This document shows positions 1 to 41,207 of a stretch of DNA of 64,000 bases, in pieces. Both the position numbers and the translations under genes were made by a program. The notes under the pieces are model-generated. The model saw only the letters and a program-made list of their open reading frames with translations, searched no databases and was not told where the DNA came from. This DNA is from Psammoneis japonica. Its lineage: Eukaryota. Within the stretch, counting starts at the first letter, position 1, and the number at the start of each line of letters is the position of its first letter. The stretch covers positions 508,874 through 572,873 of the forward strand of contig QPGO01000029.1 in NCBI GenBank assembly GCA_008632985.1, written 5' to 3'.

Positions 1-3000
1 CAGAGCTCATTGCACTGCAGTGTGGCCATGATTGACATGCCATGGATGGCTCTGACAACTTGGATGTAAAGGACTCTCTTGCCTTTCTCCAGGAACACAT
101 GATGTCCATGCAGGTTGGGATCGATGCTCACTGGCATGTCCACTGACACTCCTGTGATCTTCATCACAATCCAGTCTTTGCCTTCTCCAGCATCTCAGTC
201 TGCACAAATGCACCTGGAACATTGGTGCTCATTGCTCATTTTGTCATGTCCTTCATGGTTGTCAACAATTGCCATCATCAACAACATCCACTTGGGGGAT
301 GCAGCAGACTGGCTGACTTGTCTTTGTCTGGCCATTCTTGGGTTGGTTTGCCCCATCACAGACCATCTGCTTTTTTGTGTGACCGTCTCATTTCTTGGCG
401 CAAGGCCACCATGGCCTTGATCCTTTCAGTTGGAGCCATGTTCTTGACCAATGCTGGTGCAAAACACATGTTGTCATGCAGCTGTTTGACTTCTTTCTCT
501 GAGGCATCATGCCCCTTCTGGCCAAATGCTTTGAGGCACACTCATGAAGCAAATGTTGCTGGGCAAAGCATGAGCCCTCTCCACTTCAGAGTCTGTCATC
601 AACCTCACACATGAAGTGTGTGAGCACCATTGCTGTTCATGCATCACACTCTACATTGAACTTGGGTTGGGACTCAGGTTGGCATGGGAACAAAGGTGCA
701 CTTGCAGGGATTCAATGACTTGTCCATGTGCAGGTTCACAGCACAGTGACTGCTTTTGGGAGAATCAACAAAACATGGTTACAGGCAGGTGCTGTTGACA
801 CCAGGTGCTTCCAGGGCCATTGTGTTTGTCTTGTCATTCTCAATGGAAATGACAAGTTTCCCAAACTTGAGCTAAATGTGTTTGTTGCAGTCCAGGTTTC
901 TTTGTTGCATGACAGTGTGTGAACTGCAGGTGTCAGAAATCCCTTCTTTTGCTGGTGTGCATGTTTGACATGATGACAGTGTTCTTCATTGTGGCTTGCT
1001 TGCACATCAGTTTGGGTGTCGTCATGTGTGGCATGTGGTGTGTGGTGGCTCAGGTTTGCTCCTTGATGGTCTGAATGCTTCACCAAACTTTGGGAACATG
1101 ATCCTTGGCATTCACAGAGATGAGCTCTAGATTTGCACAATTTGCAGCTTCTGCTGGCATGTCCTTGAACTTGGGATCACACTCAATGAAGTCAATCTTA
1201 AAGCAATGGGGCCATGTTGCACTGTTGGAGCATCACATTGTCCAAGGCTTTGCAAACATGTTCATGCTTCTTGGACTTAAGTGTCACACTCAATCAGGGC
1301 TTGATTGTCTTGCCAACCGTGTGCAGCATCAGTGCACTGCTGCATGCTTCCACAATGTCGGTCATGCCTTCTCTCTGCTTTTTGCATGTCTCAGGTGGCT
1401 GGCATGTCAATGATGTTGTTCCTCTCATGAGAATGCTGCACATGCTTGGTCTTGCCTTTGAGTGCATGCATTGGTGGATCCCACATCGCCACCATTCTGT
1501 CCACATCCTCAGGCAGGATGGGTGGGTTCTTCAACTGATTGGATCACAAAAGCAATTTGAAATCCCTTGCACTGGGTGTTCCAGCCTTGCTGCATGGTCT
1601 CAATGCTTCCTCAGCATTCACCACCTCTTGTTCAGCGCAGCCTTTCATGCTCTGTTTCACAGTTGAAGCAACAGCTCCCAATGCACTCCTGTGCTTTTCG
1701 TTGGTCTTTTTCACAACCTTCTTGTCCTTTGACAGCATGCTCACATGCAACTCATCTTCTTGGAGTTCTTTTGCATGGTTGAAGAATTGCTGGCTTGGTG
1801 CAAATGTGTGCAGTCCAATGCTGTTGACTTTGAACACTCTGACCTGTTTGCCAGCAGTCTTCTCATCCAGTGGACGGAACTCATCTGCCACTTGGTTGTT
1901 GCACACAATGCAGCACTTGCTCTTCACATCCTTGAGACTCAGGATGTTGGCTTTTGTGTTCTGCAATCTGAGCTCCTTGTCACCCCACACTGGCACAGTG
2001 CAGTCATTGTCCAAAGTGTCCACTCCTGCACTGGTGGAAAGATCAATCTTGATCCTTGCCCATTGCACGTTGCTTGTGCACTGGTCTCCAGCTTGCTGTT
2101 GTGCCAAAGGTGGAGCTTTTGTCAAGGATGATCTCATCTAACTCAGTGCTGACATCAGCCAGGCTCAAACTCATCTCCGGTCCTTCTTTGACCTGTTCAT
2201 CCAGCTGGAGCCCTTGCCATGCAATGTTTCTTCTGCCAGAGCTTGCAGATCAACTTGATCTGTGGGCGTCAATGCTGGCATCATTGCTGCTCACTGATGA
2301 AGAGTCTTCATTTCTCTGTGCATGACTCTGTCCCCTGGCATCTGGTTTCCTGCTGGTGTTCTTGTGCCAGTCCTTCTGCAGGATGTCATCCTCACATTGC
2401 AATCTGGGGCTGACTTGTGGTTTGCCTCACCACAACAATGGCACATTGCTTTGTTGCTCTGCACATGACTCTGGTCTTGTGGGTTCTTGGGTTTGTTGTT
2501 GCCCTTGTCCTCTTTCTTGTCATAAAAACCAAACCTGGTTTAAAGTGCTGTTGTGCCTTTGCCTCGCAGCACCAATGCCGGCCAACCCACACTTCTGGCA
2601 CACCCCACTGGGGGTGTGGCAGAAGCTTGTGCAATTGGCCAGACACAGCACCTCCAGAAGAAGGTGCCCAACAGAAAAACCAGCAACAGCACACTTCTTT
2701 CAGACTTTCTTCTTTCAATCGGGGTCTTGCCATGGACAGCCAATTCTGTGTGCAGGTGGTGCAGTGTGCTTGATTCTCCTAAAATGCATCTGACAAAACT
2801 CTGCAGTCTTCAGCCAAATGCTTTTGATGTTTGTTGCATGTCACAGTCAATTTGGTCTCCCATCCATCTCTGAGAAGACTTTCTTGAACCTGCATCACGA
2901 CCATGTGCCAGCCAATTTTCTCCTCCCAGAGTTCTTTCTTGTCATTCAGACTTTCATCATTCTTCTTCTTGTTCCACCTCTTGCACAGATTGTTGTCTTT

Positions 3001-4449
3001 CAGCTGGTTCAGCAACACATCCATTGCCTTCTCAAGGGTCTTTGGGTGCAAATCTCCCTCCCCAGGCTCTGCAGTCTCTCACGAGGCTCTTCTTGAGACT
3101 CTTGTGGCAGCAGTCATCACTGTTCTCCATGAACAGGCATGCAGCCCATGGCTCAAATGCAATGTCCTTCAGTGTCTGTTGATCCAACAGTTTGGCCTTG
3201 GTGCAGCACTTGCACACTCCTTGACATTCTTGATGAGTCCACTCAACATCTTCCTGCCAAGGCCTTCACTTGCAGTGTCCCATTGATTCTTTAATCTTGA
3301 CAGGCAGTCATTCAGTGACTCCTCATTCTCTGATTGTTTCACTTCCAGCATGTGCTTCAGGGACTTGACAAGTGCATGAAATGGATGTTGACCTCTCATG
3401 GAGTTGAACACAAGTGACTGGATCAGCTCCAACATCTTGATTGGGTTGTCTCTGATCCTTGAGCAACTGGGGTTGGCCTGCACTCTTTGCTTTGTCAGCT
3501 TGGAGCAGCAATCATCTGGGATTGTCACAAATGTGGCACTCTTGTTTTCTTCAAGCTTCTTGCCTTTCTTGTTGCAGTCATGCAACTTGATTTTGTGCTC
3601 ATGTTGTTCCAGCTGCCTTTCTTCTCTGGCCCTCTCATTCACCATTTTCTGGCAATCTGTGTCTGATGCTGGTTGCACTGCTGCAGATGGCATCTGAAGT
3701 GTTGGACTCACACCAGCAAAAGTCATGCATGCCATGTCTTCCAGGGACCTTGCCAGATGCACATCTTGATCATGCTCCTTCTGCACATGGTTGACAATCT
3801 TTTCCTTGGCATCTTTGAACATCGCATTGTGGGAGTTGCTGTTCATCGATGATGGACAAAACTTCATTTCCAGCTTGAAGCTTTTCCTGGGGTCAGTCTT
3901 CTTGTCCCCATCACAGCCAGACTTCTGGCCTCTGCCACCCTTGCCTTGGCCATGATGCATGACCTTGGCCTTTGGTGCTCCATTCTTCTTCCTCCTCTGC
4001 CACTCACAAGGCAGCTGACTTGGATGATGAAATGGAGGTTGGCACCGCATGCACCAAACACTGTGCTTGTGACTCTTTGGAGTGAATGTTGAACCAACAA
4101 GTCAATGTCACCAAAAGGGAATCCTCTGGGGTTTCCTGTGCCACTCGTCACACTTGTCCTGGCTGCTGTGGCAGCTGTCGTGGTGTGCCTCTCTGGAGGC
4201 TCTCCAACAAACTTCAATCTCATGATGTGAGGGGCACCTGCTGACACCACAATGCAATTTGTGTGAACCAGATGATTCCATCCAAGGAGTGAGACAAAAG
4301 AAGGTTGGTTAGATTAGTGACGAGTGCACGCTCCATTCCAAAGTGTCGCCTGGTCCGCCGTGGCCGCTGGCAGGATCAGAAGCATCTTCTCTTTAACAGA
4401 TCCACTTCCGGGTCTCTCACATTTCCTGCTCATTCTAGATGCTCCAACA
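1..4449 (-). mobile_element. Decayed Ty1/copia (CoDi-like) LTR retrotransposon, family A, copy 1; runs off the window's left edge
   Basis: Minus-strand fragments in copia order: putative 5' LTR ~4449-4253 (TG...CA), PBS-like TGGTGTCAGC at 4249-4240, gag-like ORF 3169-4050, protease/integrase remnants ~550-2300, RT N-terminus (LKAFGQKGHDASEKEVKQLHD, 356-541). Many stops and frameshifts. Clear nucleotide similarity to the copy starting at 19627. Confidence 0.8.
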
Positions 4450-4632
4450 TGTGGACCTCTGCCACCAACTGGAGTTTAGAGCTGGAGTCAGCTGCACTGT
4501 TGGAGCAGCGGCATTGCTGTGGCTCTCCCATCGTTCTTTGGGAGGAGTGCCGCAGCTGCACGAAGTGCGCAAGAGACAACGGTCAACGCACAGACTCACG
4601 ATGAGCGAATGCTCGCTCGCTCGCTTTTCACG

Positions 4633-4816
4633 TGAATAAATGCTGATGTGCTGTCACGTGTGTAGGCAGTTTAAGCGCTGTTGGCGATTGGTCCACTGTC
4701 GCTTATTTAGTGGCCCCAGCAGCGTAACATCTCACAATTCTAGAACCTGTTGATGCTGTTCAACACTCTGTCTTGTCTTACACCCAATTCTTAGCTATCA
4801 TGGCAGCATTTATTCA
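4633..4816 (+). repeat. 5' LTR of the family B element
   Basis: Starts TGAATAAATGCTG and ends CAGCATTTATTCA (13-bp inverted termini). Aligns ungapped with 11144-11327. Confidence 0.95.
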
Positions 4817-5362
4817 CTTTGTCAGAGCCAATGCGCTGTGATGTTCATCGCCTGGAACGGGCATCGCGAACGGTGCGACGGTGTCGTTGCGATCGATCGA
4901 TTTTTGCGGCAAGCGCCATGTTGGTCCCATGGTTGCTCGCGCAATCGCTGAGTCCTTTACACACATCAACATTCATGGATATGAACGACATGCTCTTGGA
5001 GACCAGAGCTGTGATCCGTTGGACATGACGCTAGAGTGTGGAATGTTTGATCACGTGGATGGAACATGTTGGCTAAGACACATGAACATTCGTGACAAAG
5101 CCAACATGATGATTTATGTGTGGAGGTCTGTCATTTGATCACACACATTTCATTAATCAAAATACGTTGTCAAATTGTTTGGACACTGCACATGTGGACA
5201 CATGTCTGTTGGATGTCATTGCTTGGGAGCAACACCGCCTGCTCGCGGGTTCGCCAAGTAGAAACCGCCAAATCGGCACGAGAGCCACACATTTTTCTCA
5301 CTTTCCTCCACTCACACAAGTGGATGCTCACGCGTCGAAACGCGAACAACTGCTGATGCACC

Positions 5363-6782
5363 ATGGCCGCTGCCGCAGCCTTTGCCACCTGTCTTGCGCG
5401 TTGTGGACACAATGCACAGACGCGTGCCCACATGGCCCGCCAAGGCTTCACTGCGATCGAGGACCTGGAACAGGTTCCTTTGACGGAAATCACCGACATG
5501 ACCAAGGGCATTGTGAAGAGCGTGGATGCCGCCGCCAACCCCCAAGTCCGCTTTCCCCACCTGGCAAATCGCAAGCTCAAGGCACTGCATGCATGGATTG
5601 ACTGCCGCAGAGCTTGGAATCAAGAGCCGACCACTGCTCTCTTCACTGGCAACGTTGTTGGGACATGGACGGCACGTCTGACGGAACTGGAGCAATTCAA
5701 GTCCGCCGACTCGGATGACGAATCGGCCGCCAAAACCGCCGTGGAACTCAAGAACCTGTGTGACTGGCCTGCCTTCCAGGAGCCATTGGAGACCGAACTG
5801 CGTCACCACCGCAGCACCGTTGCCGGAGTGCCCCTTGTCCACCTGGCCAGGGAACATGAAGAAGTCACCGCCGAGATGTTGGCTGCTGCCCACACCACCA
5901 TTGACGAGGACCTTGTTGCTGCCACCTGTCTTGCAGGAGCTCAGTGTGCGCAGGATGGGCAACACCTGCATGACCTCTTGAAGAAGTTGGTGATGGGGGG
6001 CCCGGATGGGCTTTTGTCAAACCTTCCAATCGCAATCGCGATGGTGCACTGCCTTCTTCGCACTTGAGAGGCAGGCGGAAGGATCGGCTGCCACCACCAC
6101 CCAAAAGAACCGTGCACATGCACAGATTGCTGCTGCAAAGTGCACCGGATGGGGTCGATTTACATTTGACCAGTGCACCCAGCGTCATCAAAAGGCTCAC
6201 AAGGACTTGTCTGAGCTTGACGAACCGGTGGCCGAGACCAAGAAGGTCTCTGACTTTCTGAAGGGCATCTCCAACCCCAGGTTGGAAACTGGAAGAGCGC
6301 AGTGGATGGAGACCCAACGAAGCGAGCGGACTTCTAGGCATGCCAGCAGCACATGAAAACTCTGGTCGAGAATGCCAAGAACCGCAATGCCGACGCTTGC
6401 GGGGTTGCATCCATCCAACGCCACAACAATCGGCGCACTGACCCTGGTGGGAAGCACCAACCTAAAAAGGATGAGCCCAGAATCCGGGCAGGCCATTGTC
6501 CTGTTGAAGAGTGGAGTGCTCTTGACGGTCCTGAATGAGAGCAAGTCCAAAAGCTCCGCGATGCCAAGAAGGCCGAGAAGAAATGCAAAGCTGCTGCTGC
6601 GTCCTCGGAGGCTGAGTCGGTCGATGCCGAAACTCGCGCCGCAAAGAAAGTGGCTGTTGCCGAGCCTGCTTCTCAACCCACTGACACACCAGAAAGACTC
6701 TGAAGAGCCTGACAAACCTGCTGCCAATGCAGGCACCCAGTTCGGACGCAGTGCGCACAAGAAACCTCAGAAGGAGGAATGA
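5363..6782 (+). pseudogene. Frameshifted gag-like gene of the family B copia
   Basis: Overlapping ORF pieces 5363-6067, 6006-6356 and 6353-6538/6372-6782 between the LTR and the protease. Motifs resemble diatom copia gag (DWPAFQEPLETEL, KKVSDFLKGISNPRL). Confidence 0.7.
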
Positions 6783-9700
6783 ATGGTTGCGCCAGCACTG
6801 GGAGGCATGGAACCGATTGTTGCCACACCTGCTGGCACTGTTCATTTGTCCAGGCGATTCTTGAAGGATGTGCACGTCTCTCCATCATCTGCTGGAAATT
6901 CAGATGACGAAGCCACCACTGATTTGGACTCGCACGCTGACACGTGTGCCGTTGGGTCCAATTTTGTGATGTGCTCTGACATCGACAGAACTGTCATGGT
7001 TCACCCCCACTCCGAAGAGCACGCACCAATGGAAAACATTCCCATTTGCACGGCTGCCACCATGTGGGTTGATCCAACTGATGGACAACCATGCCTGCCA
7101 CTGGTCCACGAGGCTGTGTTTTTTGGGGACAAGATGACCAACACCCTCCTGTGCCCCAACCAACTGCAAGCGAATGGGCTGATTGTCCACGACACCCCTC
7201 GCCAGTTTGATCCGACTGGCACACACTCCATTTCTTTCCCTGACTCGAAGATCAGGATCCCATTGTGAATGCGAGGTGTTGCTTCAGTCTTTGATTCACA
7301 CAAGCTGACAAAGGAGGATCTGGAGAACCTCCCCCGGCTGGAACTCACATCACCCCTGAGATGGGAGCCTTCTGCTGATGCCCTGGCACAAAAGGAGGAA
7401 GCGCATGCATGTGCCAGTGCGCACCAAGGATCAGCAAAGTCGGACGGACGGTCGGCGATGATGAATGCGACCAGGTGTGTCGCTTCCATTCATTCACACC
7501 AAACGTCCTATCACGACGAGAGTGTCATTGTGGATGCCAATGACGACGAATCACTGCATCACCGCCTGGTTGCTCAGGTGAATGTCTCCCACAACGACAC
7601 TGAGGGAGACGGGCTCCACGACCGGCATGACTTAGATGTCCACCCGGATTGTGCTGAGCGGAGACGGGTGTGTGCACTTTCGACCTCGAGTCGTGCATCG
7701 ACTGTCACGCCCGAGATGCTCTCTAAAAGGTGGAACATTGGCCTGACGGCTGCCAAGAACACCCTTGGAGTGACAACCCAGGCAGGGGTCCGCAATGTCT
7801 GCACACCATCTGAACAGAAAGTCTGGAAGAAAGCCCCTTGGCTTAAGTTCCCTGCTGTCAAGGGACGACTCTACTCCGATCAGATGTTTTCGAAGGTTAA
7901 ATTGATGCATGGCGAGACAGGAGGAAGCGTGTTTACCAACGGAAGAGGGCATGATGGGTTCCATCCTTGGAAGAGGAAACAGGACCACCCAGACGCCGTC
8001 ATGTCATTCACACATGACGTTGGCGCGCCGCAGGTCCTTGTGTCGGATGGCGCACCGGAAATGGCAGAAGGCCAGACCAAGGAGATCTGCAAGGAACACA
8101 GGATGCACCAGGAGGTGTCCACTCCACACAGCCCATGGCAGAACCTGGCCGAGGCATCCATTTGTGAGTTGAAGAAAAGAGTCCGTGTGACTCTGCGCCG
8201 GACTGGCGCTCACAGGCGACTTTGGTCCTGCAGCGCCAAATGGACATGTGATGTCCGATGCATGATTGCGACTGGCACATCGGACATGGGAGGACGAGTC
8301 CCAGAAGAGGAGGTGACAGGTTCAACACCCGACATCTCTTCCCTCTCTCTCTTTGATTGGCATCAACCTGTGCATTGCTGCATGCCTGTGGCGGAGTTCC
8401 CACACGAAAAGAAGTGCATTGGCCATTGGCTCGGAGCAGCTGACAATTGCACTGACGACATGGCATTCATTGTTTTGCCCGAATCAGGCAAACCCATCAT
8501 CCGGAAGGATGCGTGGGCCATGCCGGAGGATGACCTTAAAACTCCGGCGATCCTGACAGATCTTGCATCGGTCGAACAAGCTTTGATCGAACGGCTCAGC
8601 ATCCCGGAAAAGGATGCCAGTGCTGACTTCCCTGAACTCCCTGATGACTTCATGGACGAATGGGACGATGCCGTTGAACCCGTGGAACCCGACGCTTCCA
8701 AACTGGAAGCTGATGAGTGCACCCCGGAAGGGCCAGATGAACATCTCACGGCTCAAGTCATGTTGCCACGAGGAGGCGAGCTGACTCATGCTAGGGTCAT
8801 TGCACGCAAGCGAGACAGCGACGGGGTTCCCATCGGTGCTAGGAACGACAACCCTGTCCTAGACTCGAGGATTTACGACGTGGAATTCCCTGATGGATCC
8901 ACTGATTCCTGTGCTGCCAACATAATTGCAGAGAACCTGTTCACTCAGATCGACTCTGAAGGGAATGCCCACCAGATCATGAAGGAAACAGTCGATCACC
9001 GACGTGATGCCCGTGCTGTGACGGCCGATGATGGGTGCACAACGACTGAGACTGGCAGGCGTGCTCCTGGGAGGACGACAGTGGGCTGGGACCTGCAAGT
9101 CAAATGGAAGGATGGGACCACATCCTGGGTTCCTCTCAAGGATTTGAAGGAGTCCAACCCAGTCGAGGTTGCTGAGTGCGCTGCAGCGAACAAAACAGCC
9201 AGTGAACCAGCCTTCAACTGGTGGGTCCGAGACGTCTTGCATCGCAGGTCGAGGATCCTGAAGAAAGTCAAGTCGCGTTGCTGGAAACGTGCGCACAAGT
9301 TCAGAATTGAACTCCTGAAATCTGTTGAGGAAGCCATGGAGACAGACAACAGAATGGGGACCGACTTCTGGTTCAAAGCCATCAAGAAGGAAATGCATGA
9401 CGTCATGCCTGCGTTCGAATTCCGCGATGACGATGCTGCGCCGGTCGGGTGCAAACACATTGACTGTCACATGATCTTTGACATCAAGAGCACTCTCCAA
9501 CGTAAAGCGAGGTTCATGGCCGGAGGCCATCAAACCAATCCACCTGAGGAATCGACACATTCCAGCGTGGTGTCGCGTGACAGCATTAGGATGGCATTCA
9601 CTGTGGCAGCTCTGAATGACCTGGAGGTCCTGAGCGCTGACGTTCAGAATGCCTGCTTGAACGCACACACTGAGGAAAAATGTCACACCACTGCTGGCCT

Positions 9701-10991
9701 GGAATTTGGGAAGCAGAACGAAGGAAGGCCGGTGATCATTGTCCGTGCCTTGCATGGTCTCAAATCTTCAGGTGCAAGATTTAGGGAGCATGTGGCAGCC
9801 ACTCTGCGGGACGCTGAATTCGAGTCTTGCAATGCTGACCCGGACATCTGGATGCGGGCTGCGGTTGAGCCGGATGGCTTCAAGCACTGGGAACATGTGC
9901 TTGTCTACGTGGATGACTTGTTGTGCGTCTCCCATGAACCTCAGAAGGTCATGGATTGCATGAGCTCCAGGTGCACGCTCAAGGACGGAAGCATCTGCAA
10001 GCCGGAAGAGCACTCAGGCGCCCAGATTGGAAAGCACCAGCTGTCTGACTCGGATGGTGAGACACACTGGGCCATGTCCTCTGACCTTCGTGTCAAAAGG
10101 GCATTGGCTGACGTTGAATTGGAGCTTAAGAAAACTGACAGGCGTCTTCCGACAAAGGCGTTGACACCCTTGAGCTCGGGACACAGGCCTGAACTGGATG
10201 GTTCACCCGAGTTGAACACCAAAACAGCCAACTGCCATCAAGGCCTTGTCGGTGTGCTGTGGTGGGTGGTTGAACTGGGGCGAGTGGACATTTTTGTCGC
10301 TGTCTCGCTCATGTCCTCCCACTTGGCGGCACCACGAGTTGGACACCTGGACGAGGTGCTCCATGTCTTTGCATGCTTGAAGGCTCATTCTAAGTCTGCG
10401 CCAGTGTTCGATGACACTGAGCCCGTCTTTGACAAGAGTCGCTTCACCAAGTGTGATTGGGAAGAATGTCACCCTGGCGCGGCTGAACCAATGCCGCCAA
10501 ATGTGCCAGAGGCACGCGGGAATGGCATGACTGCCACTTGCTTTGTCGATGCTGATCACGCCGGATGCCGTGTGACGTGCAGGTCCCACACTGGGATCCT
10601 GATCTTCATCCAACGAGCGCCCATCTTGCATTGCTCTAAGCGGCAGAATGCCACAGAGTCCTCTGCTTTTGGGTCGGAGTTCGTGGCTATGAAGACTGCA
10701 GTGGAGCAAATTGAAGCCTTGCGTTGCAAGCTTCGGATGCTCGGAATCCCCATGGATGGGGCCACCAACGTTTTCTGCAACAATGAAGCTGTCTTCAAGA
10801 ACTCAACTAAACCAGAGTCCACTTTGAAGAAGAAGCACAATGCAATTGCCTGTCACAGGACTCGTGAGGCACAAGCCGCTGGAATGGTGCGCATTGCTTG
10901 GGAAGATGGGCACACGAATCCAGCGGACACACCAACTGAGTTGTTGCCTGGACCGAAGCTCCGGGAAATCATAAGTCACATCCTGTGGTGA
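6783..10991 (+). pseudogene. Copia pol polyprotein (aspartic protease, integrase, RT, RNase H) with one in-frame stop at 7266-7268
   Basis: Protease LDSHADTC; integrase SDGAPE...PHSPWQNLAEASI; RT DVQNACL, ALHGLKSSGA, VYVDDLL; RNase H FVDADHAG, SSAFGSEFVAM. Conserved Tyr residues are mostly replaced by Cys/His. Confidence 0.93.
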
Positions 10992-27226: not shown

Positions 27227-27363
27227 TGTGTTTGCGAGCGAAAACAGCACTGCTGTAGTAGTCGGCATTCATCATTTAGGACTTTCTGAATTAGTCGTAC
27301 AGCACCTATATCCCGCAGATTGTGTGTTTGTATTGGATGTTGTTGCATCTAGATATTATGTTG

Positions 27364-30322: not shown

Positions 30323-32977
30323 ATGCCTCCCAAGCTGCACAAGCCCCTGGACAAAGGACAAAGGACTGTTGGCACCTTTTTTAGTCCCCTGGCCACTGCT
30401 CATGCAGCAGCTGGCGTCACAAGAAAGTTCAGGACTGCTGCCAGGACTCCTGCCATTGCGCTCCCAGTGAAGCGAAAGGTGGCCGAGACACCCGCGAGAG
30501 AGAAGTCCAAAGCTCCCAAATTGACCAAGCAAGCCACACTGCCTGTTGCTTCTTTCTTCCAATCACCACCGCCCGCCAGAGCCATTGATGCCCCCTCTCC
30601 AGTTTCGACTGACACTGACTTGCTTGCTGCCAACACTGCAGCCACCGACACCGACTCGTCTGCTGCCAGCACCGCAGCCACCGACACCAACTCGCCCACC
30701 GGTGCTGCCAACGTTGCAGCCACGGACACCGACTCGCCTGCCACTCACTCCTCAGTCACCACTGACACCGACTTGCTTGCCTCAAACAAGGATGACAACT
30801 GTGATGGCAAACAGCCATTTTACACCAAGGAAGAAAAGGAGCTTCTGGAACTAGAGAAGAAGCTGCAGGGACAAGAGCCCTTTGCTGACGACATGTCCGA
30901 TGGTCAGAAGGAGAAGTGCAATCGACATTTCGTGATGAAGATTGGTGGCGACCCAACGGCACGGAAGATTGCCAAGCCATTTGCTGAAAAGGCGTTCAAA
31001 ATCTTGAAGGAATCCTTGGAATTTGAAGATCCAAATGGACATCATTCACAATTTCTTGCATCTACGAAAAATGCCACCACGTGGGGTGGGACTCATGCTC
31101 GAATGGACCCAGAGCTTGAGCAAGTGCAAGGTGTGGGTGTGAGCACCAATTTTGTCAATCGCCGAAAGTGTCGGATTGAAAATGCAGGTGTCATCCCGGA
31201 GCAGTTTCGGGTTCTAGTGTCCCTTGATTTGATTGACGTTGAGGTCGAGAAGGAGCTTGTTCGCAATGTTGTGGATCCATTCATCAAGGCCATGGCAACC
31301 AATGAACTACTTCATCCATGTCAACGATTGTTTCATCAGCAGATTCGTGATCGTGGTGGCAATGTCCTTGGTTTCAAGAGGCAGGCACTGTTCCAATTGG
31401 TCGAGACAGGCATTCAGCTCCACTGTGGCTTGTTGAGCACACAAGAGCTGGCAATGTTTGATCATCAAGTTGCAAACAACTGTTGCACAATGGCGAGTGG
31501 CAGCTCGGAACGCATCTTTTCAGATTTACAACCGGTCGTGCGGTTTGCCAAATTCAACAATGCCAAGGTGTTTGTTCGTGCAATTGGTTCTTGGAAGCCT
31601 GGCCACAATGGCATGTCGAGCAACTGTGAGACAACCAATTGTGTCGTGGGACAAGAGCACATGTGGAGCGACACAATTGGCTTTCCTGCATTTGAGAATG
31701 CAAAGGGTGCGGATCAAATCTTTTCTGCCACCCACTCACCAGAACAGCGGGCAGGCGGGGACGCAGAAATGGACTCGGCTGTTGACGAGGTCGAAAGCCA
31801 CATTTGTGGCATTGGTGTTGTTGATGCGAACCACATTGTTTGCGTCAAGGATGAGGTGTTGTTGGAGAAGTTTGTCAAACGTGGCTACGAGTTGGCACGC
31901 CGGGAGGTTGACAATGAAATGATGGTTCTGGTCCATCCATCCAGGCCCCATGCATTTTTGATCAACCGACCCTTGTGTTTTGCCAGCGACAGTCGCAGCG
32001 AGATTCCCATGGCATGCAGAGCTCGTTGTGCTCTCAGCGCTGCTACGCTCACTAATGTTTTTCGATGCATCCGAGACGAGGAACCGCTCTGCCCGACCGA
32101 CGACTGTGTGAACCCCATCAACGCGATCCTTTCTTTCCAGACTGGACGTCTGGGATGCCGCCAGCACCCATTTGCCTGCAGTGCAGCCTTCCGCGACCTT
32201 GTCACCATGGAAGAAGTCCATGCATTGAAGGACAATAATCTCCCCAAGATGGACCCCAATGATGCGTTGACGTGTCGGTCTCGGTGCTGCAGCAGGAGAT
32301 TCCCACCAGAGCTTCTAGAGGGAAAGCGTGAGAATGATTCATTGATCATGGCCAAGGCACGTTGTCTGATTAGTTTGGCAAAAGCTGGAGAGGAGCAACA
32401 AATGTGTTGTGCCTTTAGGGAACTGCTTGAGAGCGGGGTTGGTGAAAACAATTCCAAAGCTTTGAGCTTGCGATTCAGAGACTTTCTTGGATGCCACATT
32501 CTCCCAGACTCGGAGCTTGGTTCTATTCTGCAAAAGCATTGGAGAGAAACGGCGGGCAATTGCAGCAACACAAGTGGCAGCGGGCAAACCAAAGACGAAA
32601 AGACAGACAGAGATTCAAAGTTGAAGGATCTCATGGAACGGTTTGCACCAGGCGAGGACGGCAAGGCTGGAGAAATGTTTTGGACTCGAGAGGTTAGAGC
32701 GCCATTTCCACCTGCTCCCGCAGAAGGTGAGCCCAGTGATTTGCCGACAAGCAGCCCCAGCATCACATTTCTGGGCAACATTTTTGTTTGTCACGGTCAC
32801 ACTGAGGGTTCCATTCGTGGGCGTGCGAAGAACGTAGTCCGACAAGGCAGCACCAATCATGCAACGTCGGCTGATTGCAACGATGTGTCCATTGTTGCAG
32901 TGACGCATGCGGGGAAATCAATTGGGACAAAGCCTGAAGAGGAAGGCTGGATCCTTTGTCAATTCATCAAGAAATGA
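30323..32977 (+). CDS. Unknown ~885-aa protein, repeat copy 1 (frame open but TpA-eroded, so possibly non-functional)
   Basis: Long ORF (probable start MPPKLHKPL at 30323) with an N-terminal T/D/S/A-rich low-complexity segment, highly similar to 35105-37759. Confidence 0.6.
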   Translation: MPPKLHKPLDKGQRTVGTFFSPLATAHAAAGVTRKFRTAARTPAIALPVKRKVAETPAREKSKAPKLTKQATLPVASFFQSPPPARAIDAPSPVSTDTDLLAANTAATDTDSSAASTAATDTNSPTGAANVAATDTDSPATHSSVTTDTDLLASNKDDNCDGKQPFYTKEEKELLELEKKLQGQEPFADDMSDGQKEKCNRHFVMKIGGDPTARKIAKPFAEKAFKILKESLEFEDPNGHHSQFLASTKNATTWGGTHARMDPELEQVQGVGVSTNFVNRRKCRIENAGVIPEQFRVLVSLDLIDVEVEKELVRNVVDPFIKAMATNELLHPCQRLFHQQIRDRGGNVLGFKRQALFQLVETGIQLHCGLLSTQELAMFDHQVANNCCTMASGSSERIFSDLQPVVRFAKFNNAKVFVRAIGSWKPGHNGMSSNCETTNCVVGQEHMWSDTIGFPAFENAKGADQIFSATHSPEQRAGGDAEMDSAVDEVESHICGIGVVDANHIVCVKDEVLLEKFVKRGYELARREVDNEMMVLVHPSRPHAFLINRPLCFASDSRSEIPMACRARCALSAATLTNVFRCIRDEEPLCPTDDCVNPINAILSFQTGRLGCRQHPFACSAAFRDLVTMEEVHALKDNNLPKMDPNDALTCRSRCCSRRFPPELLEGKRENDSLIMAKARCLISLAKAGEEQQMCCAFRELLESGVGENNSKALSLRFRDFLGCHILPDSELGSILQKHWRETAGNCSNTSGSGQTKDEKTDRDSKLKDLMERFAPGEDGKAGEMFWTREVRAPFPPAPAEGEPSDLPTSSPSITFLGNIFVCHGHTEGSIRGRAKNVVRQGSTNHATSADCNDVSIVAVTHAGKSIGTKPEEEGWILCQFIKK

Positions 32978-35104
32978 TGGACTTCATGGGTGGAACAATG
33001 TAGGGTGACATTCCTTTAGACTAAATTTTGGGCGGTTGAGCTTTTGCATCATACTTAGGCGGCTGTGCTTTTTATTATTTTTGCTTTTTGCAGTTCGTGC
33101 TGCACGCGTACGTGGTCGGGATGGCGGAAGGACGCAGAAAACCAAGGGAAGCAAGGAATGCAGGATTTTTTGGATTGTTTCACATAAGTTTCTGCCACCA
33201 TCATCAAGCGATGTGCGTCGCCTATCTTCCTTTACAGTAGCCTTAGGGTTGCCTGTTGCTCGGCACACTTGTGCTGACTGTGACAATGTGTGTATCCTCC
33301 ATCCATCTGTCTTTGCTGAAGCAGAGCTGCTGTTAGTGGTCAAGTGCTATATTGTCATTTGCAAGATGATTCTGAAACGACACAAGTCAGTAGAAGCGAC
33401 ATCCGAATTCTTATGGCGTCTATTTTCCTTTCTATGGATTGATCGTATCGCATCTGGTGAGCATTTGATGCGTGCTCTTTTGAACTTTTGTTGTCACTCC
33501 AGCACTCCATTCTTTACTTGCATTGTTTTCTCTTACGCTCTTTATTTCTTTTCTTCAGATTATGCCAACAGGAAACGACATACGCCATCCCTTGTTGACA
33601 GACAAGATGAAATAACTATTGTATTCATTGAGTCTCCACACGCTTTTTGCTGTGTGTTGGTATTTATGCTCTTTGGTTTTGCTGAAGATCAGCGTTGCGA
33701 CTTTGGGTATGGCAATAATTCGTTTTGGTGGCTTGAGACAGAGAGACATCCTTTTCTGCCATAGTTACCGGTCTAAAGTCATTAGCGAGAACGAGTGGTA
33801 TTGAAGAGAACAATCTCTCCATCTGCTAGCTACCGGTGGATTGTGGATTGCTGTGTTTGTATTATTGGTAAGCGACGCACCATTTCACTCTCGGCATCAT
33901 TTCGTCATTTCAATAGCTACTTGTCTCACACTCTGTCTATTCTGTTTTTATCAACATTATCAGAGGGGAGACGAGCATCGTGCCTCAATGTCTGCAAAAT
34001 GGTCACCTGCGCAATGTCGACGAACGGCACTGACAGAGCGGTGTCTTAATTTCCGTGTCTTGTTGTTCATTTCGATCTACACAGAATGGCCACCGAACGA
34101 CTCGTACCTTACCAATCTAGGGTTGTCGTCATAGGTCAAGACTTTGTGGTGACGAGTGTCAGCGAGTTACAGAAACTGCAGACGCACCTCGCGGCGTGCC
34201 GGCCCAAGACGAAGCCATCACTCATTTCATTCGAAGCACAGTCGTATTCGTTAACCAGAACGCACGGCATTCACACCAAGCAATCTCCCTGTCTGCTGTA
34301 AATTATGGAAAACTCTGTATTATTGGCAAGTTGATTACCATCTACAAGAAAGATGCTTTCTCTCACGGCATCGCATCGTTTACTTGATTGTTGCTGCTTG
34401 TCTCACTGTGCTTTGGATTCTCTATCATTGGGGCCTAAAGCCTGGCCACTGGTGCTGCAGTGGAGAGTGGGAGAGCCACAGCAGTCAATGCAATTAATGA
34501 ATGCTCGATTGTGCTCGCTGGCAAGTGTCAGTGCCATAGGTGTGCTCGCCTATCTACTCTCTACTCTCTAGCTAGTAGAGACAGTGTCTCCGCACCTCCG
34601 ACTCACGATTGACTCTCACGACTGAGAGATGAAAGATACGAATCACATGTCCAGAATGTATATGTTCAATACAGAGTGGCATTTTTTCGGCGCGTTTCGC
34701 CTCATTGATCAAACAAAAAACAAAGCGAGACATCACTCTACTCTCGTTATTGCACTTGCTTTTGGTGCGGCATTCCTTCTTTACCTCGTTTCATTTTCCT
34801 CATTCCGCTGTCGATGTGTGATGCTGGTGCTCACATTGGTTGTTACTTGTTGTTTGTTTCGCCATCTCAATGGTGACAGGAGACGAGTGCGAGATGCGAA
34901 GCTCTTCGTGCAGCTCGGCATTGGAGGCTGTGCACCAATCGCTGGCATGCGACACGGTGAGTGCTCAATCACATTGTCATTCATGCTGAATTCTTCTTTT
35001 GTCTCTGATGTTCATCTGGTCATTCGTCATTCTCATTGTTTGTCATGTCGTTTGCTCTTGTGATGCCGAAGGATTCGCGCCGCAGCTGCATGTGTCGCGT
35101 CATC

Positions 35105-37759
35105 ATGCCTCCCAAGCAGCATGAGCCCCTGGCCAAAGGACAAAGGACTGTCGGTGCCTTTTTCAGTCCCCTTGCCAATGCCAATGCAGCAGCTGGCATC
35201 ACAAGAAAGTTCAGGACTGCCACCAGGACTCCTGCTGTTGCGCTCCCAGTGAAGCGAAAGGCGGCCGAGACACCCACGAGAGAGAAGTCCAAAGCTCCCA
35301 AATTGACCGAGCAAGCCACACTGCCTGTCACCAGTTTCTTCCAATCACCACCGCCTGCTGGAGCTGTTGACACCCCCTCTCCAATTTCGACTGATGCCCA
35401 CTCGTCCACTGCCAGCACTGCTTCCACCGACACCGACTCGTCTGCTGCCAGCACCGCAGCCACCGACACCAACTCGCCTGCCGGTGCTGCCAACGTTGCA
35501 GCCACGGATGCCGACTCGCCCACTGCTCACTCCTCAGCAACTGCCGACACCGACTTGATTGCCTCAACCAAGGATGACAACTGTGGTGGCAAACAGCCAT
35601 TTTACACCAAGGAAGAAAAGGAGCTTCTGGAACTGGAGAGGAAGAATCAGGGACAAGAGCCCTTTGCTGATGACATGTCCGATGGTCAGAAGGAGAAGTG
35701 CAATCAACATTTCGTGATGAAGATTGGTGGCGACCCAACGGCATGGAAGATTGCCAAGCCATTTGCTGAAAAGGCGTTCAAAATCTTGAAGGAATCCTTG
35801 GAATTTGAAGATCCAAATGGACGTTGCTCACAATTTCTTGCATCTACGAAAAATGTCACCACGCGGGGTGGGACTTGTGCTCGAATGGACCCAGAGCTTG
35901 AGCAAGTGCAAGGTGTGGGCGTGAGCACCAATTTTGTCAATCGCCGAAAGTGTCGGATTGAAAATGCAGGCATCATCCCGGAGCAGTTTCGGGTTCTAGC
36001 ATCCCTTGATTTGATTGACGTTGAGGTCAAGAAGGAGCTTGTTCGCAATGTTGTGGATCCATTCATCAAGGCCATGGCAACCAATGAACTGCTTCATCCA
36101 TTTCAACGATTGTTTCATCGGCAGATTTGTGATCGTGGTGGCGATGTCCTTGGTTTCAAGAGGCAGGCACTGTTCCAATTGGTGGAGACAGGTGTGCAGC
36201 AACACCATGGCTTGTCGAGCACTCAAGAGCTGGTGATGTTTGACCATCAAGTTGCAAACAACTGTTGCGAGACTGCCAGCTGCAGCTCGGAATGCATCTT
36301 TTCAGATTTACAACCGGTCGTGCGGTTTGCCAAATCCAACAATGCCAAGGTGTTTGTTCGTGCAATTGGTTCTTGGAAGCCTGGCCACAATGGCATGTCG
36401 AGCAAACGTGAGACAACCAATTGTGTTGTGGGACAAGAGCACGCACTCAGTGACATGCTTGGCTTTCCTGCATTTGAGAACGCAAAGGGTGCGGATCAAA
36501 TCTTTTCTGCCGCCTGTTCACCAGAACAGCGGGCAGGCGGGGACGTAGAAATGGATTCGGCCATTGACGAGGTCGAAAGCCACATTTGTGGTGTTGGCAT
36601 TGTTGACACGAACCACATCATTTGCGTCAAGGATGAGGTGTTGTTGGCGAAGTTTGTCAAACGTGGCCACAAGTTGGTGCGCCGGGAGGTTGACAATGAA
36701 ATGATGGTTCTGGTCCATCCATCCAGGCCCCATGCATTTTTGATCAACCGACCCTTGTGTTTTGCCAGTGGCAGTTGCAGCGAGATTCCCATGGCACACA
36801 GAGCTCGTCGTGCTCTCAGCGCTGCTGCGCTCACTAATGTTTTTCGACGCGTCCGAGATGAGGAACCGCTCTGCCCGACCGACGACCACATGAACCCCAT
36901 CAACACGATCCTTTCTTTCCAGACTGGACATCTGGGATGCCACCAGCACCCTTTCACCTGCAGTGCAGCCTTCCGCGACCTTGTTGCCACAGAAGAAGTC
37001 CATGCATTGAAGGACAACAATCTCCCCAAGATGGACCCCAATGGTGCGTTGACGTGTCGGTCTCGGTGCTGCAACAGGAGATTCCCACCAGAGCTTCTAG
37101 AGGGAAAGCGTGAGAATTGTTCATTGATCATGGCCAAGGCACGTTGTCTGACCAGTTTGGCAAAAGCTGGAGAGGAGCAACAAATGTGTTATGCCTTTGG
37201 GGAATTGCTTGAGAGCGGGGTTGGTGGAAACAATTCCAAAGCTTTGAGCTTGCGATTCAGAGACTTTCTTGGATGCCACATTCTCCCAGACTCAGAGCTT
37301 GGTTCTATTCTGCAAAAGCATTGGAGGGAAACGGCCGGCAATCGCGGCAACACAAGTGGCAGCGGGCAAACCAAAGATGAAAAGACAGACAGAGATTCAA
37401 AGTTGAAGGATCTCATGGAACGGTTTGCCCCAGGCGAGGACGGCAAGGCTGGAGAAATGTTTTGGACTCGAGAGGTTAGAGTGCCATTTCCACCTGCTCC
37501 CGCAGAAGGCGAGCCCAGTGATTTGCCGACAAGCAGCCCCAGCATCACATTTCCCGGTGACATTTTTGTTCATCACTGTCACACCAAGGATTCCATTTGT
37601 GGGCGTACGAAGAACGTAGTCTGACAAGGCAACACCAATCATGCAACGTCGGCTGATTACAACGATGTGTCTGTTGTTGCAGTGACGCATGCGGGGAAAT
37701 CAATTGGGACAAAGCCTGAAGAGGAAGGCTGGATCCTTTGTCAATTCATCAAGAAATAA
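35105..37759 (+). pseudogene. Unknown protein, repeat copy 2, premature stop at 37622-37624
   Basis: Colinear with copy 1. CGA in copy 1 is TGA here, and homology continues to the original stop near 37759. Confidence 0.75.
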
Positions 37760-39443
37760 TGGACTTCATGGGTGGAACAATGTAGGACAACATTCCTTTA
37801 GACTGAATTTTGGGCGGTTGTGATTTTTCAAAATGGGGCACATTCGCTCGTGATCACACGTTACGAAATCCAAGGGAAAGCAAGGGAATGAAAAACCAAG
37901 GGACGGAAGGTTGGCAGAATGCAGAAAAAACACCACAAGTGTCATTTTTTCATGCATCGCTTGCTGCGCTGTGGCCTTCTTCAGCCTTGCCTTGCAGTTG
38001 TCGACTGCCCGCCAAGAACATTGTTCATGTTGACTGCAATCTGTTGGAGCTGAAATGGCGTCATTGCTGTGGTCAAGAGAATTTCACATCACATGGCAGC
38101 TCTTCTTTGTGGTGTTCGTTTCTTTCTTTTGGGCTGCAGTCAAAAGGATGTGATCATGCGCAAAGTCTTGAATGCGTGAACAATTTGTTCACTCACTCAC
38201 GTGTGCTTGGCTTGTTTGAATGTTTGTTGTTGCTTCATTTGTTGCTTGTGCTCTTTGTTCTTTTTCGCTGATTGGAGTGGAGGGGAGACGTCTGTTGACT
38301 GACACGGTCAGTTTGATTCATTGCACAAGGCAAGAGACTTGCACAATTGTCTCCATTTGTGCACAAGATGCATGTGCTTCAGCTCTCTGTGTTGACAAAT
38401 GCTCTTGATCTGGCTCCACTCGTTTCTCTTGTTTGAATTTGGTTGCTGCCGGGCGGTCCATTCGAAGACACACCTCAAGACATGTGTTGCCTCAACATGC
38501 ACCTCAAGACACACAGCACCTCAAGATGCACAACCACACGGGCTTTTGTTCTTGTTTTTTGTTGCACTTGGATCTGCCTCAAGAAATGCAGCATCTCATT
38601 TCTTGCTCATTGATGATGACATGTTGGCACCGAAGCTTCAATTCTCTGTCTCTGTCCAAAGAGTGTTGGTTGCACCCATTTTGCAGTGCACTTCTCTGCT
38701 GTCTGGCCTTTTGTAAGAGCGCAGTGGGCACTGCACAGTGCCGCATCTTTCGGCCAATGTGGGACCTCATCTGGAGCTCTGGAGAGAGGCCCCGCTGTCA
38801 TGTTGTTGGATGGAGAGCAAAGATGGATGAAGCAAGACGCCGGTGCAGCACAATTGAGGTGCACGTGCCTGTCATCATCAGTCCCTGTGACCACAATTCA
38901 CACAAGACCCAGATCACATGGCTGTGTTCAGGATGGTTGTTGGCAATTGTGCAACTTTTTTCTGGCGTGTCATCTCCCCTCACTTCTTCGGCAAAACGCA
39001 ACGAGATGAGAGACCCATCATGGCACTTTTGGTCTTTGCCCCTGCTGTTGGTGAGGTTTGCCTTATGACCCATTTAGTGCATTTCCTCATTCTGCATTCT
39101 GACATTGATGTTGTGCTCACATTGACTGTTGTTGTTGTTGTTGTTGTTGTTGTTCGTTGTAGATTTGTGCCAATGTCTGATGAAGAGAACGAGACACTTT
39201 GCTCGACTCGCCATTGGTTGCACATCACAACCATTGGAAAAGGCAAGCTGCACTGTTGATCTAATTGCTCTGCAATGCTTTCTCATTGCATTTTTTCTCA
39301 TTCATCCATCGTCACAAATTTCTCACATTGTTTGCAATTTTTGTTGTTGTTGTTTGTTCAGCTGTCTCAAAAGTGATGGGAAACAAGGACTCGATGTACA
39401 AAGCTCTCAGCATTGACAGCACACCAATCACTGTCATTCAGCC

Positions 39444-40745
39444 ATGCCTCCAGCCGGTGAAAACAAGCCTCTGTCCAGGGGACAAAAGACCATTGGTGCA
39501 TTTTTTTGTTCAATGAGCAATCCAAGAATTGCCAGCAAGACCCCGGTGATGACAACAGCAAAACAAAAAGCTGCCGAATCACCTGTGGTCAGGAACTCCA
39601 AAGCCACAAAAAGGACTGAGCTGTCAACTCTGCCAATTGCCAGTTTCTTCCAGTCCTTGCCTTTGACTGGAGCAATTGACATCTCCTCTCCAGTTTCCAC
39701 TGATGACGACTCTCATCCACTGCCGGTGTTGCAGCCACTGATGCTGACTCGTCTGCCACCAGCATTGCAGCCACCGACAACTGCTCATCTGCTGCCGGCA
39801 TTGCAGCCTTGGACACCGACTCCTCTGCTGCCGGCATTGTTTGCTGCTGGTGTTGCAGCCTTTGACACTGACTCATCTGCCTTTTACACTGTCTCATCTG
39901 CTGCCAATGTTGCAGCCTTTTCTTCGAACACATTCAGTGAGCAAATGGCGAGGAAGATTGCAAAAAACCACGTGCTGAACAAGCATTTAAAATCCTGGAG
40001 GAGGCATTGGAGTTTGAAGATCCAAATGGACATCACTCTCAATTTCTTGCATCTGCAAAAAATGTCACCACATGGGGTGGGACTCATGCTTGAATGGACA
40101 CAGAGCTTGAGCCGCAAGCACAAGGTGTGGGCATGAGTGCCAATTTTGTCAATCGCCGAAAGCATCCTCAGATTGAAAATGCAGGCATTGCCCCAGAGCA
40201 GTTTTGGGCTCTGGCGTCCCTTGATTTGATTGACATTGAGGTCAAGAAGGAGCTTGTTTGCAATGTTGTAGATCCAATCATCAAGGCCATGGCAACCAAT
40301 GAACTGCTTCATCCATTTCAACGATTGTTTCTTGTGATTGTGGTTGCAACGTCCTTGGTTTCAAGAGGCAGGCACTGTTCCAATTGGTGGAGACAGGTGC
40401 ACAACAGCAACACTGTGGCTTGTCAAGCACTCAAGAACTGGCAATGTTTGATGATCAAGTCGCAAACAACTGCTGGCAGGACCACCAGCTGCAGCTCCAA
40501 ATGCACCTTTTCAGATTTGCAACCCGTCGTGCGGTTTGCCAAATCCAACAATGCCAAGGTGTTTGTTTGTGCAATTGGTTCTTGGAAGCCTGACCACAGC
40601 GGCATGTCAAGCAACTGTGAGACAACAAATTGTGTCATGGGACAAGAGCACGTGTTCAGTGACACACTTGGCTTTCCTGCATTTGGCGAATGCAAAGGGT
40701 GCAGATCAAATCTTTTGCACTGCCTGTTCACCAGAGCAGCAGGTG
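39444..40745 (+). pseudogene. Unknown protein, repeat copy 3, truncated and frameshifted
   Basis: Fragments MPPAGENKPLSRGQKTIGAFF, DLIDIEVKKELV...KAMATNELLHPFQRLF and NNAKVFVCAIGSWKP match copies 1 and 2. Confidence 0.8.
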
Positions 40746-41207
40746 CCTGGTGTTTTCTTTTCAGTTTCATTGCATCAGCCTGGCGGCGAAGAATGATGTT
40801 AACTCCGTTTCTGGTTTTGCGGTGTTGCTTGGTGTCGGCCGGAGTTTGGCGGCTGCTGTCTGGACTGTCGGAGATACAGTGTTGACTCATCTTTCGACAC
40901 ATTCAAAGCGCGCGACTGCTGCGTCAACCGTCCAAGAATGCGCAAGGCTTGAATCTCCTCAAATTTCGCTTGTCGCTACTCTCTGCTTCAGCTGCCTCTC
41001 TAATAGCGGCGTCGCGGCAGCGCTAAGCTATGGGCATTATAGCTCTTGTGAGGCTAAAGAAGTGCGTTGCTACTCTAGCTAGCTTATACTTCTGTACGTA
41101 TCTTCGAGCTGAAAGACGCCATGCAGTACAAGCATTGTAAAAGTCTATTCATCGTTCATGTCTAGAGAAGTACTAGTCCAATCAACCCCCATCAAGTTCA
41201 TGCCCTT

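Follow-up and report, generated by a model that had tools for sequence, protein, structure and literature searches.

We analyzed a stretch of 64,000 nucleotides of the diatom Psammoneis japonica (GenBank assembly GCA_008632985.1, contig QPGO01000029.1, positions 508,874 to 572,873 of the forward strand; here termed the window and numbered from its first letter), in which the dinucleotide TA (TpA) has been almost entirely erased from five blocks of DNA that include most of a Copia-type long terminal repeat (LTR) retrotransposon and several other repeats. The change is confined to transposon and repeat DNA, and the adjoining genes are untouched. Comparisons of the two LTRs of one element, of sister repeat copies, of the encoded proteins with their homologues and of the window with read-derived sequences lead us to conclude, with a probability of roughly 0.8, that the loss is a real, DNA-level, postintegration hypermutation of TpA to TpG or CpA acting on mobile and repeat DNA of a diatom nuclear genome. 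It reached near-saturation while background divergence amounted to only about 1 to 4%.

In 2-kb windows, the observed/expected (o/e) ratio of TA is 0.01 to 0.22 across 1 to 26 kb, 0.06 to 0.14 across most of 28 to 40 kb and 0.58 to 0.76 in 42 to 64 kb. The five depleted blocks, which total 36,415 bp, hold 130 TA (3.6 per kb) against the approximately 1,587 expected from the density in normal DNA (1,068 TA in 24,501 bp, or 43.6 per kb). All but one of the 58 TA-free stretches of at least 200 bp fall inside 1 to 40990, the longest measuring 1,566 bp, and the o/e ratios of TG and CA rise together on one strand to 1.4 to 2.3 in the depleted DNA. Block 1 (1 to 4309) has almost no TA or CG; block 2 (5260 to 25997) has lost TA throughout and, at approximately 15000 to 25500, CpG too; block 3 (27506 to 28209) is a single TA-free stretch of 704 bp; block 4 (28473 to 32990) contains a repeat copy, A; and block 5 (34845 to 40990) contains its sister copy B and a partial copy C. 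The borders are sharp at 500-bp resolution, with edges sharper than about 30 to 250 bp, and at the abrupt end of block 5, near 40990, the TA density jumps inside roughly 30 bp. Four islands with normal TA separate the blocks, namely, 4310 to 5259, 25998 to 27505, 28210 to 28472 and 32991 to 34844, and the gene region from 41001 to 64000 serves as an internal control. An initial annotation of the window had described TA as nearly absent over most of 1 to 26 and 27.5 to 41 kb and normal in 41 to 64 kb, TG and CA as abundant on the same strand, the translations as nearly devoid of Tyr and the effect as restricted to transposon- and repeat-rich domains, all of which is borne out by these counts and by the protein comparisons below. 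The range that it gave is correct in outline but is interrupted by the four islands, one of which carries a proteasome gene, and the concurrent absence of CpG had gone unmentioned.

The Copia-type element, which occupies 4633 to 11328 on the forward strand from 5' LTR to 3' LTR, has the termini TGAAT...ATTCA and is flanked on both sides by CACG. Its LTRs (4633 to 4817 and 11144 to 11328) are 185 bp long and 92% identical. The 5' LTR keeps 11 TA, nine of which read TG (five sites) or CA (four sites) in the 3' LTR, where the only TA retained are those within TTAA and CTAG; at one extra site, one LTR has CA where its partner has TG. In all, 10 of 12 TA sites have been converted in the 3' LTR and 1 of 12 in the 5' LTR, and the remaining differences come to 3 in 185 columns (one CpG transition, one other transition and one transversion). 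One of the converted sites lies in an AATAAA of the 5' LTR, which is AATGAA in the 3' LTR. The LTRs of one element are identical when it integrates; hence, with 10 of the 12 sites changed in the 3' LTR, the change came after insertion. At TA sites of the LTR pair it exceeds the background of about 1% by approximately 100-fold, a figure to be read as an order of magnitude. The unconverted 5' LTR belongs to a spared part of the element (4633 to 5259, with 19 TA in 627 bp) that takes in about 440 bp of the leader and ends in a sharp internal edge near 5260.

The pol reading frame of this element (6783 to 10991, forward strand; a protease motif upstream, an RVT_2 domain and one in-frame TGA at 7266 to 7268) has hundreds of full-length relatives at 45 to 60% identity, against which the changes can be polarized. 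Tyr accounts for 0.32% of its residues versus 3.49% in 92 homologues. Of 32 columns with Tyr in 60% or more of the homologues, 3 still have Tyr in the window, 14 have His, 12 have Cys and 3 have another residue, whereas the columns conserved for Glu (33 of 33), Phe (24 of 24) and His (12 of 12) are all intact. Among 538 columns that are conserved in 80% or more of 50 homologues, 88 differ in the window: 35 of these differences fit TA>TG (20) or TA>CA (15), 20 are CpG transitions and a single one is any other A>G or T>C, the remainder being made up of 5 other transitions, 16 transversions and 11 cases that need two changes.

Further evidence comes from repeats present in more than one copy. Copy A (30154 to 33048; open reading frame [ORF] at 30080 to 32977, 965 aa) and copy B (34914 to 37830; ORF at 35009 to 37624) encode members of an unnamed protein family, copy C is partial (39944 to 40743) and repeat D (2964 to 4305, in block 1) is a 73%-identical relative of 19729 to 21049 on the opposite strand. 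The commonest dinucleotide difference between A and B is a double one, CA in one copy opposite TG in the other, which occurs 43 times in 2,895 columns; the same exchange is found 11 and 13 times in 787 columns when A and B are compared with C, 18 times in 398 columns of a further pair and 58 times in 1,293 columns of the D/E pair, where CpG has been lost as well and ancestral CG sites may add to the count. A site that reads CA in one sister and TG in the other points to an ancestral TA that was changed independently in each. The change is limited strictly to TA: outside TA and CG, A and B show no excess of transitions (47 versus 57 transversions). They have 11 TA in common, mostly with a pyrimidine 5' of the TA, and their upstream regions do not align (49% identity) beyond a 126-bp piece.

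Copies A and B encode a protein of about 900 aa, for which HMMER retrieved 126 relatives; a word-index search that used the 965-aa copy A ORF as the query gave no hits, and a scan of ten of the relatives yielded no Pfam family above the curated cutoff. This is probably a mobile-element protein with no previous description. The Tyr content of the copy A and B ORFs is 0.21% and 0.23%, versus 2.82% in 66 homologues, and two conserved Tyr columns of the family are His in copy A and Cys in copy B. Among the short homologues of the family in a public protein library, three entries (P0271, P0328 and P0331; 204 to 274 aa) contain 0 to 0.4% Tyr and 7 to 9% Cys plus His, a composition that suggests that they are TA-erased copies called as genes elsewhere. 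A Pfam scan of 25 further reading frames from the depleted blocks produced no match above the curated cutoffs, and the blocks other than the Copia element therefore stay unclassified.

These comparisons leave next to no room for the notion that freedom from TA is intrinsic to these families, as a result of selection or of a master copy composed that way. The composition itself, and nothing else, speaks for it. Metagenomic relatives of the Copia element have TA o/e ratios of 0.48 to 0.98 at 80 of 80 loci, and all 120 of the Copia homologues listed contain 2.9 to 4.6% Tyr, so the Copia family as such is not free of TA. Moreover, the conserved Tyr columns have turned into His or Cys, the independent CA and TG at one site of sister copies require an ancestor that bore TA and the 5' LTR of the very same element keeps its TA. 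The LTR pair, the sister-copy sites and the Tyr columns refute this explanation, to which we assign a negligible likelihood.

Both products of the change appear on the same strand in closely similar numbers. The 3' LTR has five TG and four CA, the Tyr columns of the Copia frame went to His (TA>CA) 14 times and to Cys (TA>TG) 12 times on the coding strand, and the 43 sites discordant between copies A and B read TG 22 times and CA 21 times in copy A. Strand-coordinated tracts of the kind produced by repeat-induced point mutation (RIP) or APOBEC enzymes were looked for in copy A, and none were found (29 runs versus 22.5 +/- 3.2 expected). These proportions bear on the possibility that the editing preceded integration, carried out by an ADAR- or ADAT-like enzyme on retroelement RNA or by a deaminase on the cDNA during reverse transcription. 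Such a scenario suits the fact that the best-characterized element is an LTR retrotransposon and that RNA adenosine deaminases usually prefer to have a U or T 5' of the A that they edit, as noted in a recent preprint on the chlorarachniophyte Bigelowiella natans (Mettrop et al., bioRxiv 10.64898/2026.01.13.699255, 2026). Yet editing of the sense RNA gives TA>TG only and is at odds with the His/Cys and TG/CA numbers just given, 10 TA sites distinguish the LTRs of a single insertion, the 3' LTR bearing both products, and the first 630 bp of the same element are spared up to a sharp internal edge. The sense-strand T>C changes together with the unequal LTRs rule out editing of an RNA intermediate as the main source, and we regard preintegration editing in general as very improbable.

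The bases on either side of the TA strongly affect its fate. With R for purine and Y for pyrimidine, retention relative to the normal density is 0.015 for RTAY, 0.071 for the mixed contexts and 0.24 for YTAR (chi-square P = 4e-19), i.e., losses of 98.5% of RTAY and 76% of YTAR. A model of two independent half-sites (hazard of 2.1 for TAY and 0.71 for TAR) predicts 0.060 for the mixed contexts versus the 0.071 observed, and the flank dependence fits two half-sites that are attacked independently, one on each strand. Pyrimidines 3' of the A favor the change. By 3' neighbor alone, retention rises from 0.03 for T and 0.09 for C to 0.18 for G and 0.23 for A. The half-sites lost most completely are TATA, TATC, TACT, TACC and TATT, those lost least are TAAA, TAAG and TAGA, and retention is lowest for TAYY half-sites as a class. 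No gain of CG accompanies the loss of TA.

The same DNA records a second and slower process, the change of CpG to TpG or CpA, which has removed all CpG from the older blocks. In 1 to 4000 and 15000 to 25500, the CpG o/e ratio is 0.00 to 0.15, and TG and CA are almost the sole pyrimidine-purine steps remaining. The loss does not depend on the 3' base, since CGA, CGC, CGG and CGT are all reduced to 0.07 to 0.09 of the normal level. CpG differs between the LTRs at 1 of 5 sites versus 10 of 12 for TA; copies A and B show 49 differences of CG against TG or CA versus 98 shared CG; most CpG is gone from copy C; and none remains in the D/E pair, which differs by 7% transversions. Background divergence and CpG decay rise together across the copy pairs. 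Of the 11 Arg columns that have changed in the Copia pol frame, 8 now read Trp, Cys, His or Gln. The simplest reading of the CpG loss is deamination of 5-methylcytosine in methylated transposons, and diatom transposons are reported to be CpG methylated by Hoguin et al. (2023). Such deamination operates alongside the erasure of TA in these blocks and likewise yields TpG and CpA, but it is unable to remove TpA and accounts for the CpG loss only. As a separate observation, one metagenomic Copia locus (L072) combines a CpG o/e ratio of 0.24 with normal TA (0.60), indicating that CpG decay without TpA loss exists in other hosts.

It might then be asked whether a dedicated mutator is needed at all, or whether a bias of replication or repair in heterochromatin, such as mismatch or base excision repair that favors G:C at TpA, slowly erodes TA. 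The confinement of the loss to domains and the decay of CpG in the same blocks are as expected for silent, methylated chromatin, and partial states exist, the 5' LTR having a single converted site out of 12. Slow erosion is hard to reconcile, however, with a 3' LTR in which 10 of 12 TA are converted against 2 differences outside TA and CpG in 185 columns (about 100-fold), with the abrupt edges, e.g., near 40990 and 5260, with the strict tetranucleotide specificity or with the approximately 1,000-fold raised rate seen in some lines only of B. natans, as the preprint reports. We therefore judge this explanation to be quite unlikely.

A complete conversion of one dinucleotide also resembles a systematic base-calling error, and an artefact of sequencing or assembly, in which a modified base of the repeats is misread or polishing converts TA, had to be considered. 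A public run of the same organism (X1) contains 94% of the sampled words from 21001 to 31000. Unitigs derived from its reads match TA-free DNA of the window with no difference at 21001 to 21611, 23088 to 23793, 24141 to 24715, 24687 to 25620 and 39165 to 40307 and with one difference at 37759 to 39116. The word depth of these TA-free unitigs is 62 to 72, the same as that of the single-copy gene unitig (61.9), and this gene unitig (1,883 bp; 25977 to 27859) links the TA-normal proteasome gene to TA-free DNA. If a modified base had been misread strand by strand, half-depth branches with TG and CA and shattered unitigs would be expected; the unitigs are intact and lack half-depth TG/CA bubbles, which disfavors misreading. 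The X1 unitigs exclude a consensus or polishing artefact, X1 not being an independent platform and possibly consisting of the same data as the assembly. Against an artefact also speak the lack of any CG gain with the TA loss, the flank rule in what is retained, the choice of CA or TG that varies between near-identical copies and the joint scaling of background divergence and CpG decay across copy pairs. An artefact is, in our estimation, extremely improbable.

The direction that the initial annotation had proposed, from TA to TG or CA on both strands of inserted DNA, is accordingly upheld by the LTR pair and by the near-equal product counts, and the heavy missense load that it foresaw is seen in the loss of 29 of the 32 conserved Copia Tyr columns, mainly to His or Cys. 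The dedicated or chromatin-coupled mutator that it had inferred is putative, as is the induction by repeats implied in its term "reverse RIP." Three observations that it had named as potentially contrary, i.e., TA in raw reads, a polarized spectrum without a TA-specific excess and intact relatives that are themselves TA-free, turned out the other way: the X1 unitigs show TG and CA rather than TA, 35 of the 88 polarized differences are TA changes against one other A>G or T>C and the relatives are normal in TA and Tyr at all 80 loci and in all 120 listed homologues.

The coding consequences follow from the genetic code. Conversion of TA to TG or CA makes no stop codon because TGA can arise only from TAA, and in the absence of new stops, the frames remain open over 1,240, 965 and 871 codons. 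The damage is instead missense (Tyr to His or Cys, Ile to Met or Thr), loss of stops and destruction of signals that contain TA, such as AATAAA. The in-frame TGA at 7266 to 7268 separates the protease part of the Copia polyprotein (LDSHADT motif, 6783 to 7265) from the remainder; it cannot have been created by the TpA process, and a CpG transition from CGA to TGA is one possible origin. GC content is 0.52 to 0.55 in the blocks that have lost TA only versus 0.46 to 0.51 in the gene region.

One island of untouched DNA within the erased region (25998 to 27505) carries the forward-strand gene for proteasome subunit beta 5. The encoded protein (26420 to 27226) is 85 to 89% identical to diatom proteins, which identifies the window as nuclear DNA of a diatom and not of a fungus. 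An mRNA-like contig spans 26242 to 27297 with a GT..AG intron at 26406 to 26515; TA-free DNA ends 245 bp before the 5' end of this contig and restarts 209 bp past the poly(A) site. Exactly at the edge between this island and the next TA-free block, an 85-bp unit is tandemly duplicated (27364 to 27532; 94% identical). Upstream of the gene, at 26142 to 26143, the window reads CG and a full-depth X1 unitig reads AA, either a small assembly error or a strain difference. The control region from 41001 onward encodes SDR, RING, ankyrin, TERT and HMG-box proteins; its telomerase reverse transcriptase (52494 to 55844) is encoded by a single uninterrupted frame of 1,116 codons with Telomerase_RBD, RVT_1 and TERT_C domains.

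What directs the change to some DNA and away from other DNA can be approached through the exceptions. The island at 32991 to 34844, which lies between the two erased copies A and B, is normal in both TA and CpG, and X1 contigs and those of a second run (X2) fall on it at a summed depth above single copy; these contigs include diverged relatives, so the summed word depth is a rough hint only. A 251-aa ORF in this island (33009 to 33764) has no Pfam match. Conversely, a bin at 27671 to 28337, mostly within the TA-free block 3, has a depth of 51, about that of single-copy DNA, whereas most of the blocks have a summed word depth above single copy, again a rough guide, as it sums relatives. Copy number alone does not account for the pattern. 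The spared 5' part of the Copia element and the spared island suggest that a local state, such as silent chromatin, methylation or small RNA, suits the data better than a rule that affects every repeat or every element. The X2 run behaves like RNA, with a spliced and polyadenylated proteasome contig, and is not recorded as such; its contigs on 29 to 37.6 kb differ from the window by 7 to 52 letters per 236 to 313 aligned bases and hence stem from other family members, and those parts of the window that lack X2 cover are uninformative on silence.

On the basis of these observations, a scheme can be conceived in which silent mobile DNA would be marked by chromatin, methylation or small RNA and the mark would direct to it an enzyme that turns A:T into G:C by acting on the A of 5'-TA-3' in either strand. 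This step may be performed by an adenine deaminase with sequence selectivity, ADAT2/TadA-like or built on another deaminase fold, that would generate hypoxanthine at TpA, to be read as G, and the slower loss of CpG to TpG and CpA would follow in the same blocks. Judging from the sequence patterns, we put the odds that the chemistry is adenine deamination to hypoxanthine in 5'-TAY at about even. Another chemistry would have thymine as the mutated base: an enzyme such as a TET/JBP-type oxygenase would make 5-hydroxymethyluracil or 5-formyluracil in 5'-TA-3' of silent DNA, and its mispairing with G would yield T>C. In dinoflagellates, 5-hydroxymethyluracil occurs preferentially at TpA. As TA is self-complementary, all of the results fit this chemistry equally well, and the flank effect can be read as a purine 5' of the T instead of a pyrimidine 3' of the A. 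On the other side stand the proposal of adenine deamination in the B. natans preprint, the only paper on this signature, and our failure to meet any evidence of diatom thymine hypermodification in the literature, neither of which is a test. We consider this modification of thymine unlikely.

Several points weigh against the hypermutation that we propose or against parts of it. Within one element, the process has left the 5' LTR and some 440 bp of leader intact but has erased the 3' LTR, and this spared segment and the multicopy island fit no simple rule of whole elements or of any repeat. Both the targeting and the chemistry are things that we infer; given the palindromic nature of TA, mutation of the T to C leaves the same trace as mutation of the opposite-strand A. 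The Tyr codons obey the flank rule in their products (after a purine, 10 His versus 4 Cys; after a pyrimidine, 8 Cys versus 4 His and all 3 retained Tyr), but the split comprises 26 codons only. Similarly, the predicted products, RCAR and YTGY, are in clear excess in the pooled blocks and show no such bias inside the Copia element alone. Finally, no platform is recorded for X1, which is perhaps the source data of the assembly itself.

A hypermutation of this type has practical consequences. Repeats freed of TA hold very long open frames because TGA is the sole stop remaining, and the Tyr-free, Cys/His-rich pseudoproteins that they encode will pollute gene catalogues; in such genomes, moreover, LTR divergence will give badly skewed insertion dates. 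The finer target motif (RTAY over YTAR, with TAYY half-sites) is a criterion for any candidate enzyme, and TA-bearing elements beside erased ones constitute natural substrates for direct tests. A natural A-to-G mutator of DNA would also be of interest to base editing.

Among known systems, the closest functional analogue of the process is fungal RIP. RIP in Neurospora and other fungi is likewise a DNA-level hypermutation of mobile or repeated sequences that is context specific, transition only and strand symmetric, has sharp edges and serves in genome defense. It converts C:G to T:A at CpA, giving rise to TpA and stop codons and to a lower GC content, whereas the diatom process changes A:T to G:C at TpA, destroys TpA, creates no stops and raises GC. 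With TpA removed and GC at 0.52 to 0.55 versus 0.46 to 0.51, RIP itself is rejected because its defining chemistry is absent. A relative of the RIP enzyme RID, DNMT4, is widespread in diatoms, its function being unknown according to Hoguin et al. (2023). The ADAR and APOBEC systems share with the diatom process a deaminase-type hypermutation directed against mobile or viral nucleic acids and, in RNA adenosine deaminases, the preference for U or T 5' of the edited A; their substrates are RNA or single-stranded cDNA, and the signature left behind is limited to one strand and is the same in the two LTRs, whereas here the strands are equal and the LTRs differ.

The nearest match overall is with B. 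natans. The initial annotation knew of no description of such a system, a view that is now out of date, as the 2026 preprint reports the same signature arising de novo in that alga. Mutation accumulation lines yielded 302 single-nucleotide mutations, 231 of which lay in two integrated viral regions (Mettrop et al., bioRxiv 10.64898/2026.01.13.699255, 2026), at a rate of about 6e-7 per site per generation, i.e., about 1,000 times the background, and only in some lines; all but one were A>G or T>C, all of those at TpA. The B. natans genome contains 124 clusters of windows poor in TpA and rich in CpA plus TpG, its TpA-depleted coding sequences are enriched for reverse transcriptase and DDE domains and an ADAT2-like DNA adenine deaminase was proposed, unproven, by the same authors. 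In our searches of the literature on diatom hypermutation, RIP or RIP-like processes and the TpA (TA) dinucleotide, no description of TA loss in diatom repeats was found, and for TpA depletion in general, this preprint was the one directly relevant paper found; TpA-erasing hypermutation is thus otherwise described only there, in a rhizarian alga, with its mechanism unknown. The words "flanking," "trinucleotide," "diatom" and "stramenopile" are absent from the text of the preprint, in relation to which the flank rule, the LTR comparison as proof of postintegration change, the concurrent loss of CpG with its timing and the extension to diatoms are new.

The two cases agree in being restricted to A>G and T>C at TpA, in yielding TpG and CpA on both strands and in affecting foreign or mobile DNA alone while neighboring genes stay normal. 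They differ in host, a rhizarian (chlorarachniophyte) versus a stramenopile (diatom), and in stage: in B. natans, the mutations were caught de novo, and a 186-kb giant-virus insert is mildly depleted (rho TpA of 0.45), whereas the diatom window presents the end state alone, near saturation (o/e of 0.00 to 0.2), on an LTR retrotransposon and unclassified repeats. The presence of the same signature, saturated, on diatom retrotransposons shows that it is not peculiar to one lineage or to viral inserts, and a second lineage makes a comparative search for the enzyme feasible, through deaminase or oxygenase genes that co-occur with the signature. More speculatively, and as a possibility to which we give perhaps a minority share of our belief, diatoms and chlorarachniophytes might share one ancient defense of the stramenopile-alveolate-rhizarian (SAR) lineage, a DNA deaminase capable of acting on double strands, with a preference for 5'-TAYY half-sites and aimed at mobile DNA that is silent; this enzyme, or a relative able to deaminate both A and C, might drive the near-total CpG loss of the older blocks too. 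If so, one system would push every pyrimidine-purine step to TpG or CpA, and its enzyme could be identified by phylogenetic profiling of deaminase-fold genes against the signature. The erasure in P. japonica is the same kind of process as the TpA hypermutation of B. natans, found in a second, distant lineage and at a far more advanced stage.

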